Shown here one piece after another: positions 44,762 through 49,503 of a stretch of 64,000 nucleotides of DNA. Location of the stretch: assembly GCA_963746235.1 (NCBI GenBank), contig CAVVCE010000007.1:19854-83853 (forward strand), read 5' to 3'. The translations under genes were made by a program, and so were the position numbers. The notes beneath the pieces were generated by a model, which saw nothing but the letters and a program-made list of their open reading frames with translations, searched no databases and was not told the DNA's origin. Source of the DNA: an uncultured Alphaproteobacteria bacterium (lineage in GTDB: Bacteria; Pseudomonadota; Alphaproteobacteria; Rhizobiales; Xanthobacteraceae). Numbering within the stretch: position 1 is the stretch's first letter; every line of letters begins with the position of its first letter.

Positions 44762-45031
44762 GAGCAACCGAAAGGGATGATGCTTGGCCGCCGAGAACTG
44801 CCTCGATCCGAAAGACAGAGTCGCTGATGCTGGATGCACGATCGCGTCAGGTCCCGGATTTGCTTATTTTCTGATGTGATCCTGCAGCGGGCCGGCGATC
44901 GAGGCCACCCACCGCAGCTGGGCCGCGAAGCAAAAACGCCCGCCAAATCCAGACGTTGCTATGTCGCGACGATGAGCGGTTTGGCGCATGGCGTTCGCAG
45001 GAACCTTCGAGAACGAAAATAGGAATATAAT

Positions 45032-45241
45032 TCAAGATAGAGTGCGGCTATTTTCTCGCCAGAGAGCGGCGAGAAACTCAAGAAGGGCCATCTTTCCCGC
45101 CGCTCTTGCGGTCCCTTCCGATCTGAAATCGCCTTTCCGCAGACGAGCCGGAAGAGGCGCGCCATTGCGATAAACTTCCCATTCCCATGGCGAATGTGGA
45201 TTGGGCTGGGCCACCACAATCGTATAGTTTTCTTCGCTCAT
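45032..45241 (-). CDS. Small hypothetical protein
   Basis: MSEENYTIVVAQPNPHSPWEWEVYRNGAPLPARLRKGDFRSEGTARAAGKMALLEFL. It lies in frame behind a resolvase HTH remnant. Confidence 0.4.
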   Translation of the reverse strand: MSEENYTIVVAQPNPHSPWEWEVYRNGAPLPARLRKGDFRSEGTARAAGKMALLEFLAALWRENSRTLS

Positions 45242-45261
45242 GTCCGCAGGCTCGGTATCGG

Positions 45262-45640
45262 AATCGGTCGCCAAGGTACGATAGACCGACGCTCGGCCGA
45301 CCTCCAACGCTTTCGCGATCTCCGACGCTCCCCGCGGCCCTCGGCCTTCACGCACCCTGACCGCAGCTTGGGCGTTGGCTACGGGCCGTCCAAAGCGGTC
45401 TCGCGGACGTTGACGCCGCGGTCGCCGCCCGGGTTCGGGGTGCGGTCATGCTTGCAGCCGCGCGAGCAAGCGTCGCACCTGAGCCGCCTCCCATACCCCT
45501 GCCGCCCGCGGTCCGAACGCCGCGTCGATTTGATTCTTCAGCGATACCGCTCAAAGTCGATTGCCCGCGCGTCTCGGTGTCCTTGATGGTGGGCGCAAGG
45601 TCGACCGCAAACCGGCGCGCGTGTGACGCACCGACCTCCG
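45262..45640 (-). mobile_element. Serine-recombinase (resolvase/invertase) C-terminal remnants
   Basis: One piece is an HTH fragment, GASEIAKALEVGRASVYRTL. A second piece, RRFAVDLAPTIKDTETRGQSTLSGIAEESNRRGVRTAGGR, continues in another frame as VWEAAQVRRLLARLQA. No catalytic N-terminal domain. Confidence 0.5.
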
Positions 45641-45846
45641 AGCCGGCCCTGTGGCTGCGAAAAGGACCGCTTCGATTGCTCCAATCCGTGAACGACAGGA
45701 TGATCGGCGACCAACGGGGCTGAGCGCGTTAACGACGATCCCTTCTGCACACTATTTCCGCTTGACCCAAAATAACGGTCAGATATCTTGTTTATACAAA
45801 AGTAATGCAACTGTATTTTGATTGAATCAACCTTTGGTGGAGCTAC

Positions 45847-45996
45847 ATGACAGTCATAGCAATGCCGAGAAAGCGCCAGGAAGCCGATGCGGAATATCGT
45901 CAGCGAATGATCGTCAACGCCGTCGCGGCTTCCTTCATCGCCTTGTTGATAATCAGCGGGTATTGGGTGGTGAGCGCGCTGGCGGGAGCCTTCTAA
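45847..45996 (+). CDS. Small single-TM membrane protein
   Basis: 49 aa, below the track cutoff: MTVIAMPRKRQEADAEYRQRMIVNAVAASFIALLIISGYWVVSALAGAF. RBS GGTGGAG upstream. Confidence 0.4.
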   Translation: MTVIAMPRKRQEADAEYRQRMIVNAVAASFIALLIISGYWVVSALAGAF

Positions 45997-46131
45997 ATCG
46001 ATGTCCAGGCGGCCCGCCAAATGGCGGCACGAACGGCAACGGTGGCGCGTCACTCTTGGATCTCGCACCAGTGTGATAATTCGGCAACCAACGCGCCCTC
46101 CAATTGGCCTACGCTCCTCTTGCCCTCATGG

Positions 46132-46184
46132 GCATTTCCTCTTTGAAGCATTTCCTCTTTGAAGCATTTCCTCTTTGAAGCATT
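46132..46184. repeat. 16-bp perfect tandem repeat x3.3
   Basis: GCATTTCCTCTTTGAA repeated head to tail, immediately upstream of the terminator hairpin. Confidence 0.95.
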
Positions 46185-46189
46185 AGCTT

Positions 46190-46216
46190 GCCCCGCTTTT
46201 TGCGGGGCTTTTTCTT
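46190..46216 (+). terminator. Rho-independent terminator
   Basis: GCCCCGC-TTTTT-GCGGGGC followed by TTTTTCTT. Confidence 0.8.
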
Positions 46217-46563
46217 GTATGCCGAGCATGATCGACAGCTTGGGGGTGTAAGTCCTTTACCCAGCCTGATGGCGGCGAAGGGTTAGCGAAGCGCAAGGGC
46301 GTCGTCGCGAGGCGAGGTCTGAAAGAAGCGTGGAGCAAAGCCGCGACCCGATGGATAAGAACCGGATAACGAGGCCTCCCCGGCCGGACGAGCGAGCGAG
46401 TGATCGCGAAGTCCACTGCCATCCCCCCAACGCCGCCCTCGCGGCGCTCGGCTTGCCTTTCCTCGTGCCCACCAAACCGAGTAATTTACCGAACCGCCGT
46501 GTACGGACCCGTACGCACGGTGGTGTGGGAGGGGTGGGTCGTGAGGCTCCCCCCTATCCCGAT
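46217..46563 (+). mobile_element. ORF-less, truncated-architecture group IIC intron ribozyme (DI, DV, DVI)
   Basis: Conserved IIC blocks GUUAGC..CGCAAGGG..GUCUGAA.GAAGCG..GCAAA and AAGUCC...CUGCC. DV 46491-46527 is GAACCGCCGUGUACGGACCCGUACGCACGGUGGUGUG, with a CGC triad and a 2-nt bulge. DVI has a bulged A at 46556. The element starts 8 nt after the terminator stem. The 3' end is uncertain (46563-46567). Confidence 0.7.
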
Positions 46564-46784
46564 TTACGGTTGCACTATGGGCTCAACCGAGCCCTGCGCA
46601 TCGTCGGGCCGTACGGTTCTCGACTTTGAACAAGTCTCGCGAAGGACCGCACCAGTAGGCCGCGCCGAGCCTCTTTGATAGCGGCTTCCAGACCCATGGC
46701 ATAGGCCTGCCGAAACACGGTCATGCCGTCTGCCTCGGTCTGTTCGTTGAGGGCTTGGCGCGTTGGCGTCGCCGTTGCACCGGA

Positions 46785-47025
46785 TCAGTTGCCGCTGGCG
46801 GTCATCACCGCCTGACAGGGCTTGCTGATGCGCGGCTTCTGCTGCCTGAGGCAGGAGATAATGCGATCGAGACTCCCGATCGCGGAGACGCAGTAGCGAA
46901 ACACATCCCCGGTGCAGGCGGCGCGCGCCTCGGCTTCGCCGACCGCAAAGCTCGGGGTCGAGGAGGCGGCGAGCACCAGCGAGAGGACAATAGAAGCCGA
47001 GGTCAGTTTCCGAAATTTGTTTCAT
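46785..47025 (-). pseudogene. Small secreted Cys-rich protein, +1 frameshift just after the start codon
   Basis: ATG AAA CAA at 47025, then a one-base shift gives FRKLTSASIVLSLVLAASSTPSFA (signal peptide) + VGEAEARAACTGDVFRYCVSAIGSLDRIISCLRQQKPRISKPCQAV. Confidence 0.5.
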
Positions 47026-47595
47026 GAGAGCCCTCCAAGGTTGACCTGTTCCCAACCCCATAACGCTCGCACGCGAGATCCTGGAGTACCGTGATCGCCC
47101 TCACACAACGCATCTGGCCGGTGGGTACCGATCCTGACGATCGAGCACACGAGACAGTGCCCAGGGAAACGGTTCAGGTTCAACCGTTGAGGTCCAGAAG
47201 GGGGCGCAGCGGGTGACCGGACACGGCAACTGGAAGCCAAGTATCACACTAACCTACATGTAAGCCATTGAAATATATCACTTATGTCATGCAGGCGACA
47301 GTCTCAGCCGAATAGATGCTTCCTGTGATGTGAAACAATGATCGTGAGTTCCTCAAGATGGAACCGCTCGCGGGCACGAAGGTTGTTTCGGGAGGCCGGT
47401 GCGCAGGATGAGCGTAGCCAGCCATGCGAATTCCGCTGAAGGCGCCGGCCCTCGACCACCGGCAGGGTGCGGCCTGACGCTGTGCGAGCATCGTCGGCAC
47501 TTGGAGTCACCGGCTAGCGCGCTAACACCGGTTGTCATGAGGCACCCGCCGGCGAAACGGCGTCTCCTCGCGGCGTAGGCAGAAGCAGGGGGACG

Positions 47596-49503
47596 ATGCA
47601 AGAAGCACTATCCGACCCGGCAGACCGCTCAATTCCGTCGCAAGAGCCACTGGAACAGGGGAAACGCAGTCTTCTGATAAGGCGGTTCTGGTCGACGGCC
47701 ATCGGCTTCTGGGGTCGTCACGGGAGGCCCACCGCATGGATGTTATCTGCCGCGGTTCTAGCCATCATCCTATTCAACCTCGCAATGCTCTACGCCATAA
47801 ATTTGTGGAACCGGAAAATTTTCGACGGTCTGCAGGCTCACGACGCTGCGGCCGTCCTCTTCCTCTCGCTGATTTATTTTCCGCTCCTCATAGCAAGCGT
47901 GGGCTCGACCGTCGTCCAAGTCTATGTGCGCATGACGCTGCAGCGGCGATGGCGGGCGTGGCTCAACGGTCGGCTCGTCGACCGCTGGCTGGCCAATGGC
48001 CGATACTATCTGCTCAATCTGGTGAGCGGCGACCACAAGAATCCAGAATTCCGCATCGCCGAAGACGTGCGGATAGCCACAGAGGCGCCGGTCGAATTCG
48101 TCGCCGGAGTGACGACTGCATTCCTCTCCGCGGCGACCTTCGTGGCGGTACTGTGGGCGCTTGGCGGCACTCTCGATGTCCACGCGGGCACGGTCCATAT
48201 CGTCATACCGGGGTTCCTCGTGGTCGCCGCGGTGCTCTACGCGCTGTTGGCCAGCGGCTCCATGGTGCTGATCGGACGCCGTTTCGTCCCGGCATCGGAA
48301 GCTAAGAACCAGACCGAGGCGGAATATCGTTATGTTCTGACCCGGTTGCGTGAGAACGGCGAGAGCATAGCGCTGCTCGGCGGCGAGGAAGAGGAGCGCG
48401 CCGGCGTCGACCGCTCGCTCGGCAATGTTTTGCGGGCGTGGCGCGACCTCTGCTTTCAAAACATGAAAACCACAATGGTGTCGCAGACCAGCGGCTACAT
48501 CGCACCGGTGCTGCCGATCATTCTGTGCGCCCCCAAGTTTCTCGCCGGTGAATTGACGCTGGGCCAGGTCATGCAGGCGGCTTCGGCGTTTACGATCGTG
48601 CAGACCGCATTCAACTGGCTGGTGGACAACTATCCACGGCTTGCCGATTGGGCCGCATCGGCGCGCCGCGTTGCCTCCTTGATGGTATCAATAGACGCGC
48701 TGGAGCAGGCGGAAACCGGCGAAGAGCTCGGCCGGATCGAGCGGACCGAGGGCGAGGGGCCGGCTGAGCTGCGATTGCACGATCTCTCGGTTACGCTGGA
48801 TGATGGCACTGCGGTCGTCGACGAAGCCGAAGTCGCCATCATGCGCGGAGAGCGGGTGCTGATCGCGGGCGAATCCGGCACCGGAAAAAGTACGCTGGTC
48901 CGCGCCATTGCGGGGCTGTGGCCGTGGGGCGGCGGCCGAATCGAGTTGCGCCGTGGCGCTCGCATCTTCTTTTTGCCGCAGCGCTCATACGTGCCAACCG
49001 GCACGCTGCGTCGCGCCGCAAACTATCCGGACGCCGCCGAAAGCCGCAGCCGTGAAGACATCGAGGCGGCGTTCCGGCATGTCGGGCTCGATCATCTGAT
49101 CGATCGCCTCGACGAGGAGGCGCCTTGGGACCACACGCTCTCCGGCGGCGAGAAGCAACGCCTTGCCTTTGCCCGCGTTTTTCTCCACAACCCCGACATT
49201 ATTGTGCTCGACGAGGCGACCGCTGCTCTCGATACGGAAAGCCAGGACCGGCTCATGCAACTGATCTCCAAGCAGCCGTCCGAGACGACGCTGATAAGCG
49301 TGGGACATCGTCCCGAACTTGAGTCCTATCATAGCCGGAAGGTCGTCCTGGAGCGCCGGCGCGGCGAGACCCGACTTGTGAGCGACATCCGTCTGGCACC
49401 GAAATTCGGCCTGCGGGAATCGCTTTTACGCTGGTTGCCATGGTCGACATCAAGAAGGCCCGTAAAGAAAACAGAGGTCGCGGCGCCATCCGACGCGCCT
49501 TGA
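47596..49503 (+). CDS. Fused ABC transporter (SbmA/BacA-like TMD + NBD; YddA-type)
   Basis: 635 aa. N-terminal TMD with FWGRHG..., NPEFRIAEDV. NBD has Walker A GESGTGKST, signature LSGGEKQR, Walker B IIVLDEA. Confidence 0.85.
   Translation: MQEALSDPADRSIPSQEPLEQGKRSLLIRRFWSTAIGFWGRHGRPTAWMLSAAVLAIILFNLAMLYAINLWNRKIFDGLQAHDAAAVLFLSLIYFPLLIASVGSTVVQVYVRMTLQRRWRAWLNGRLVDRWLANGRYYLLNLVSGDHKNPEFRIAEDVRIATEAPVEFVAGVTTAFLSAATFVAVLWALGGTLDVHAGTVHIVIPGFLVVAAVLYALLASGSMVLIGRRFVPASEAKNQTEAEYRYVLTRLRENGESIALLGGEEEERAGVDRSLGNVLRAWRDLCFQNMKTTMVSQTSGYIAPVLPIILCAPKFLAGELTLGQVMQAASAFTIVQTAFNWLVDNYPRLADWAASARRVASLMVSIDALEQAETGEELGRIERTEGEGPAELRLHDLSVTLDDGTAVVDEAEVAIMRGERVLIAGESGTGKSTLVRAIAGLWPWGGGRIELRRGARIFFLPQRSYVPTGTLRRAANYPDAAESRSREDIEAAFRHVGLDHLIDRLDEEAPWDHTLSGGEKQRLAFARVFLHNPDIIVLDEATAALDTESQDRLMQLISKQPSETTLISVGHRPELESYHSRKVVLERRRGETRLVSDIRLAPKFGLRESLLRWLPWSTSRRPVKKTEVAAPSDAP

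Follow-up and report, generated by a model that had tools for sequence, protein, structure and literature searches.

Within group II introns DI must fold as a scaffold, and J2/3 and DIII contribute to the catalytic core. Introns of class IIC are known to target intrinsic terminators (PMC4424553, PMC8919778). [quoted passage not shown] In the window, by which we mean the whole 64-kb stretch of DNA that was analysed, a copy of a IIC group II intron of 347 nt occupies 46217-46563 on the + strand and starts right behind an intrinsic terminator (Table 1). Its closest relative on the 5' side is L001, a 1879-nt intron on the Rhizobium etli 8C-3 plasmid pRsp8C3c. The assignment to class C (IIC) is based on the terminator target and on the IEP of L001, which has RVT_1 and GIIM domains and lacks an endonuclease domain. 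We consider it very probable that the element is an internally deleted IIC intron, and as such an ordinary relic of a known kind.

The 3' end of the element lies at 46563 (…CCCGAU), where the alignability of all relatives stops and beyond which the sequences diverge. Two Rfam models match within the element, namely RF00029 (DV/DVI) at 46492-46563, with 45.1 bits against a gathering score of 40, and RF02001 (group-II-D1D4-3) at 46301-46463 on the + strand, with 55.8 bits; no further intron or IEP signal was detected with Rfam in the 64-kb window. A first-pass annotation, made from the letters of the DNA, had placed the start of DV at 46491, which is confirmed by the sequence and by the RF00029 match, and had counted 38 nt between 46453 and 46490, exactly as they stand. 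The four motifs on which it built its model of DI (GCCGAGC at 46221-46227, TTGGGGG at 46240-46246, CCCCCAA at 46424-46430 and GCTCGGC at 46446-46452) can likewise all be read in the sequence.

Table 1. Coordinates of the features of the intron copy and of the terminator that precedes it (positions in the window).
Feature	Position	Strand	Remarks
Intrinsic terminator and U-tract	46190..46216	+	Stem-loop GCCCCGC-UUUUU-GCGGGGC at 46190-46208, UUUUUCUU at 46209-46216; terminator scan
Retained 5' part of DI	46217..46423	+	Intron positions 1-206
GCCGAGC	46221..46227	+	Genuine 5' strand of helix I(i); covariation in relatives
Deletion junction	46423..46425	+	Within the C-run CAUC/CCCCCAAC; DI homology ends at 46423, IEP ORF homology from 46425
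3'-end remnant of the RT/maturase ORF	46424..46490	+	…P-N-A-A-L-A-A-L-G-L-P-F-L-V-P-T-K-P-S-N-L-P
DV, apparently intact	46491..46525	+	RF00029; identical to DV of L002, L132 and L254-L256
DVI with bulged A (CCUAUCCC) and intron 3' end	46526..46563	+	RF00029 alignment

The retained part of DI contains the GUAUG 5' end (G3>A), the 5' strands of I(i), I(ii) and Id, the hairpins Ia and Ib, the Ic arm and an EBS1-type hairpin at 46386-46414. Two features of functional IIC introns are present, these being a DV hairpin that is followed by DVI with a bulged branch-point A, and insertion in the sense orientation directly downstream of an intrinsic terminator. The conserved GUGYG 5' end has become GUAUG; G3 of this motif does not vary among the 29 aligned relatives, and GUGUG is what the orthologous copy L258 has. 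A complete DI, with I(i), I(ii) and paired Id stems, is not found, and neither are DII, DIII and the J2/3 linker, as the stretch from the junction to DV consists of ORF-tail sequence only. The RT/maturase ORF that is housed in DIV of functional copies (RVT_1 and GIIM, no endonuclease domain) is represented by ~22 C-terminal codons. The element does not correspond to an ORF-less intron either, which would have all six RNA domains with a stub of DIV: here DI is truncated and DII/DIII are absent.

The extent of the loss was established by comparison with full-length relatives. In blastn searches the plasmid relatives align to 46204-46423 and resume at ~46490 after 1.6-1.8 kb, in which an ltrA gene (RT/maturase) is annotated. 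Positions 1-206 of L001 are 91.8% identical to 46217-46423 and its positions 1771-1879 are 81.7% identical to 46457-46563; relative to this intron ~1.53 kb is absent from the element. The element was aligned with the 5' ~285 nt of 29 relatives, 23 of which come from metagenome contigs and 6 from plasmids (alignment A1), and the consensus structure of DI in these relatives, obtained with RNAalifold, comprises 77 pairs, 42 of which show compensatory changes. In every relative CCGAG (A1 columns 6-10) pairs with CUCGG (columns 277-284) inside the conserved CUUACCUCGGGAG, and this helix, I(i), covaries across the family (GAG/CUC, GGG/CCC, GUG/CAC and AAG/CUU), as do helix I(ii) next to it and the Id stems. 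In the window the true closing strand CUUACCUCGGGAG is missing. The element is collinear with the family as far as …GAAGUCCACUGCCAUC (46423), beyond which nothing is common to both. All 35 of the local consensus pairs of DI are kept, and 42 of the 77 consensus pairs have their 3' partner beyond the junction and have gone from the element; even in a forced alignment only 19 of these 42 form in the element, by chance, against 97% in the relatives. The RF02001 score is 121-141 bits in intact relatives against 55.8 in the element, a fall that results from the missing 3' partners of DI, and the alignment of this model over 46424-46463 of the element contains mismatches and has low posterior probability. 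RF01998 (DII/DIII) was undetected in the window even at E<=10, and matches to it are present in L001, L003, L136, L176 and L202. DI of the element is truncated, not closed, with the break falling inside DI at intron position ~207 (46423/46424).

The sequence that follows the break, 46424-46490, is leftover IEP coding sequence. It is 97% identical to the last ~22 IEP codons of related copies (…FPNAALAALGLPFLVPTKP…). Over 46425-46563 identity amounts to 97.1% for L254, 92.9% for L256 and 85.9% for L255, and all three alignments set in precisely at the junction; the sequence that precedes it in the relatives is …AGCAACAGYCCCGCCCTG…GCATTCCC (codons S-N-S-P-A-L-x-x-A-F-P), at which place the element has DI sequence. 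The matching sequence in L254-L256 encodes the C-termini of the proteins P0122-P0124 (…SNSPALxxAFPNAALAALGLPFLVPTKPINLPNRR…); P0123 reads …GSPHGPWRLSNSPALTLAFPNAALAALGLPSLVPTKPINLPNRRVRTRTHGGVGG…, its N-terminal part being GIIM domain, and P0122 and P0124 are similar. C-terminal IEP fragments were also returned by a protein search with a spurious 99-aa ORF that crosses the junction, and a profile HMM made from the last 60 residues of 32 IEPs and run against all six-frame fragments of 45800-47000 has its single best match at PNAALAALGLPFLVPTK (E = 0.007). Read as codons, GCUCGGC (46446-46452) represents Ala-Leu-Gly of the conserved …LGL… motif, CCCCCAA (46424-46430) represents Pro-Asn, and the 38-nt stretch 46453-46490 represents the last ~13 codons before DV. 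GCUCGGC is already present, unchanged, in the ORF of L254, and was therefore not created by or for the deletion.

The position of the IEP stop varies among the relatives. In the lineage nearest to the 3' half of the element, L254:181-417, L255:1039-1350 and L256:144-455 (P0122-P0124), the frame continues through DV (…NLPNRRVRTRTHGGVGG…) and stops in DVI, and in L001, L002, L127 and L132 the stop is found 5-10 nt before DV. Comparison with L001 and L127 had suggested that the ORF remnant is shifted by 1 nt ahead of a TAA stop at 46482-46484, a reading that was dropped; L254-L256 (P0122-P0124) read through DV in the frame of the element.

The 7-nt complementarities between the 5' end of the truncated DI and the tail are chance matches of genuine DI 5' strands to leftover coding sequence. 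The MFE fold of 46217-46563 contains both helices, and its stability is that expected of an arbitrary tail: when the 67-nt tail is shuffled, the whole element has z = +0.14, with 50% of the shuffles equally stable, and DI plus tail has z = -0.54, with 27% equally stable. Dinucleotide shuffles of the tail contain a perfect complement of at least 7 nt to the first 35 nt in 14% of cases and two 7-mer complements in 3.5%; two nested 7-nt complements are thus mildly unusual, viewed post hoc. The GGGGG of the second helix forms part of a local hairpin with covariation across the family (A1 columns 26-30 with 38-42), in which the middle pair is A-U in 15 sequences and G-C in 12. Moreover, UUGGGGG arises from a strain-specific A>G change at 46244 that is absent from L001, UUGGAGG being found in the ortholog L258 and in most relatives, and without this change the UUGGGGG/CCCCCAA helix has a central mismatch.

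These results bear on most of what the first-pass annotation had proposed for the RNA. It took GCCGAGC/GCUCGGC for the helix that closes DI, but the real partner of the first strand, CUCGG in CUUACCUCGGGAG, has been deleted and the 3' arm consists of IEP codons; the UUGGGGG/CCCCCAA helix that it placed inside the first has to be given up as well, as GGGGG belongs to the local covarying hairpin and the A>G at 46244 is specific to the strain. It had advised a search for covariation among homologous copies, and the covariation found in 29 relatives supports the family's own DI helices and not the proposed closing helix. Its statement that only DII-DIV are missing is borne out for DII/DIII, whereas its intact DI is contradicted by the 42 of 77 pairs that have no 3' partner. 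Nor can DI and DV be regarded as retained in a form sufficient for catalysis, as was suggested, with the 3' strands of I(i), I(ii) and Id missing from DI.

We looked for the junction of the element in other copies. In a blastn search of 72,556 plasmids, among which 455 records contain relatives, no record covers 80% or more of the element. There are 0 exact matches to the junction sequence GTCCAYNGYCATCCCCCCAAYGCC in metagenome contigs, and the junction is spanned by no protein among 5.8 billion, the best coverage (59%) being that of the 3' part of the orthologous locus itself; these junction searches required exact or near-exact matches. A blastn search of the plasmids with 46416-46500 alone gave no match, this query being too short for that database. 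The pattern GCGAAGTCC N{58,88} CCGAACCGCC over genome contigs found at least 120 loci, none of them element-like among the matches listed, and is too loose for GC-rich genomes to be informative on uniqueness. That the junction is unique to the element is supported, but not proven, by these searches. The several copies with a common short DI-DV linker that the first-pass annotation foresaw for a maintained family were found neither in plasmids nor in metagenome contigs nor in proteins. It had also considered that relatives might carry the same insertion with DII-DIV and IEP in full: relatives with all of these parts do exist (L001, L002, L130, L132 and ~20 metagenome loci), none with the junction of the element, and copies of the same insertion are visible only as contigs that are broken inside the intron.

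Relatives in metagenomes were sampled with the pattern GAAGYCC N{60,90} DV, which mostly caught the GAAGCCC motif in DIV of ORF-less relatives and not the EBS1 hairpin, and which provides a sample of relatives but does not test directly for mini forms. Between DI position 207 and DV there are 339-451 nt in ~47 metagenome loci that are ORF-less with complete DI and DII/DIII, 1591-1675 nt in ~20 metagenome loci that carry an IEP, and 67 nt in the element.

Several other arrangements of related introns were encountered in the course of this sampling. The ~47 ORF-less IIC introns, found among L133-L252, are ~620-730 nt long and have complete DI, DII/DIII and DV/DVI (RF02001, RF01998 and RF00029), for example L136:2766-3385, L176:1647-2290, L202:1947-2586 and, on a plasmid, L003:1479-2090. 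This sample is biased, in that the motif used to find it, GAAGYCC at 60-90 nt from DV, is apparently conserved in DIV of the ORF-less lineage. Fragments of the same family include L131:2616-2767, which is cut after ~152 nt and adjoins an IS21 element, and L127:2601-4439, a copy without the first ~32 nt; L182:2305-2623 and L197:815-1118 have large internal replacements or deletions, with junctions that are unrelated to that of the element. Head-to-tail pairs of related introns are represented by L236:155-1061, L133:1688-2515, L160:2162-3143 and L141, in which at most a few nt separate the 3' end of one copy from the 5' end of the second, as though the next intron had used DV/DVI of the preceding one as its hairpin target.

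The insertion itself is of the kind seen in relatives, as L001, L002, L131 and L132 likewise begin right after a U-tract. Two contigs are orthologous to the flanks of the element. L258, with 95.9% identity over 44963-46280, passes from terminator to intron at the same point (the terminator, then GUGUGCCGAGC…) and runs out after 64 nt of intron sequence; for L253 the identity is 92.3%, over 46453-47600. Each of the two contigs thus breaks off within the intron, at the equivalents of 46280 and 46453 respectively. The insertion behind the terminator is common to the strains represented by L258 and L253 and therefore predates their split. At 78 family-invariant columns of DI the element has 2 changes (G3>A, and C>U at A1 column 143), compared with 0-3 in intact relatives, and its DV/DVI scores like those of intact copies. 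The retained parts have barely decayed, so long neutral decay is unsupported; the deletion may be recent, or the retained pieces may be constrained. Their state of preservation fits a fairly recent deletion.

The surroundings of the intron differ in conservation. The ABC transporter gene at 47596-49503 has 81-87% DNA identity to the metagenome contigs L124, L125 and L126, with homology that stops at ~47543; the best matches of its product are metagenomic (92%), and the nearest named one is from Rhodoplanes (71%). These three contigs are collinear with the window only from 47543 onward and carry no information on the intron site. L124 and L125 have an AI-2E transporter gene upstream instead, and the intron-bearing stretch of small ORFs (~44963-47543) is conserved only in the closer strains L258 and L253. 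Exact matches are on record neither for the ABC transporter nor for the 49-aa upstream protein; members of the cluster of the latter (P0141, P0143, P0147 and P0149) come from contigs of 2.4-5.8 kb. Just upstream of the targeted terminator, at 46132-46184, there is a perfect 16-nt tandem repeat, GCATTTCCTCTTTGAA x3.3, of which the ortholog L258 has only ~1.3 copies; the array has therefore expanded recently. The CU-rich UUUCCUCUUU units, together with a sub-threshold mmgR/suhB match at 46147-46223 (24.6 bits against a gathering score of 41), suggest a possible small RNA gene ending at the terminator 46190-46208. On the - strand, a small Cys-rich ORF at 46785-47027, listed with 63 aa and a GTG start, has an in-frame extension that resembles a signal peptide (KFRKLTSASIVLSLVLAASSTPSFA, read by eye) but lacks an ATG in frame. 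At L253:332-571 (- strand), near the place expected for its ortholog, a gene of 79 aa is called; the Cys-rich ORF may have a start-codon or frameshift lesion, or a non-canonical start.

Taken together, the sequence comparisons point to a simple history. A IIC intron RNP would have inserted in the sense orientation just behind the U-tract of an intrinsic terminator. Later, one internal deletion of ~1.5 kb would have started directly behind the EBS1 hairpin of DI and reached far into the ORF, sparing its last ~22 codons, and would have taken the 3' fifth of DI, DII, J2/3, DIII, the 5' side of DIV and ~95% of the RT/maturase gene. What remains is 207 nt of DI fused to the last ~22 ORF codons and followed by DV and DVI, an RNA that is predicted to form neither the DI closing helices nor the catalytic core and that encodes no protein. 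At the breakpoint only a C-run is common to both sides; a GCCATC 6-mer lies a few nt upstream in the ORF of L254 and gives no exact match to the observed junction. Origin in one event is what we infer for the deletion. The remnant RNA should be catalytically inert, because it is without the DI closing helices, DII, J2/3, DIII and IEP and its 5' GUGYG is mutated, and, lying behind a terminator, it is probably hardly transcribed.

The first-pass annotation had left the choice between a deletion relic and a naturally minimised ribozyme, the latter being what had drawn its interest. It is the relic that our results favour, and it is extremely unlikely that the element is a minimised and maintained mini-intron, with new helices that close DI and allow it still to splice, or with splicing or mobilisation in trans as a non-autonomous element. 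Such a ribozyme would account for the adoption of both helices in the MFE fold, for two 7-mers being found in as few as 3.5% of shuffles, and for the retention, with little mutation, of the 5' end region, the EBS1 hairpin, DV and DVI; the insertion is moreover common to related strains, and ORF-less relatives, presumably served by IEPs in trans, are common. However, both helices have IEP codons for their 3' arms, codons that also occur, with 97% identity, in relatives that carry the ORF; one of the helices needs the strain-specific A>G at 46244, and the fold energy is no better than with a shuffled tail. Forty-two covariation-supported pairs of DI are missing together with J2/3, DII and DIII, the conserved G3 of GUGYG is mutated, the same architecture or junction occurs in no other copy found, and from DI position 207 to DV the natural ORF-less relatives still have 339-451 nt, as against 67 nt here. 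We give equally little credence to a maintained non-autonomous mini-derivative, present with the same structure at the orthologous site in strains that have diverged. Intact IIC copies would recognise, splice or mobilise it in trans, or it would act as a structured 3' element behind the terminator, and its truncated DI would be held together by the chance pairing of GCCGAGC with GCUCGGC.

The same architecture could in principle be the product of assembly, with DI of one repeat joined to the ORF tail of another and a full-length or different intron in the actual genome. The organism, an uncultured alphaproteobacterium, has no close cultured relative, as judged from the matches of the ABC transporter (metagenomic 92%, Rhodoplanes 71%), and the orthologous contigs from two metagenomes break inside the intron, which marks it as a troublesome repeat for assemblers. 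Such an artefact is nevertheless very unlikely, given that DI position 207 and the ORF tail have only the short C-run in common at which a collapse could occur, that the junction is clean, and that both flanks are collinear with L258 and L253. An internally deleted relic is thus the reading that we retain.

As such the element matters little in itself, truncated and inactivated copies being the majority state in bacteria (PMC4424553). A minimal bacterial ribozyme made of DI, DV and DVI would, if true, be of real interest for the minimal catalytic core of group II introns, and this reading is for practical purposes excluded here. The locus does illustrate that in GC-rich intron remnants leftover coding sequence can mimic domain-closing helices via 7-nt complementarities, and that domain boundaries need prior alignment to full-length relatives.

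Among known systems the element is most readily compared with the full-length IIC intron L001 of R. etli pRsp8C3c. Like this intron it lies directly after an intrinsic terminator, the 206 nt at the 5' end of DI are 92% identical, and the EBS1-type hairpin, DV, DVI and the CCCGAU 3' end are the same. In contrast to L001, it is without the 3' ~60 nt of DI (the closing helices), DII, J2/3, DIII and most of DIV, as well as ~95% of the RT/maturase ORF, and its 5' end is GUAUG instead of GUGUG. It probably also resembles O.i.I1 of Oceanobacillus iheyensis, another bacterial class C intron. With the truncated or inactivated bacterial copies (PMC4424553) it shares the character of a non-functional retroelement fragment outside housekeeping genes, although it represents an internal deletion with both ends kept and not the more familiar truncation at one end; the other fragments that we found (L131, L127, L182 and L197) do not have its junction in common. 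The ORF-less IIC derivatives of ~620-730 nt, such as L003 on plasmid pNGR234b of S. fredii NGR234, belong to the same ribozyme lineage and likewise have no IEP gene, but these keep a complete DI, DII/DIII and a DIV stub, whereas the 67 nt that precede DV in the element are the tail of an ORF.
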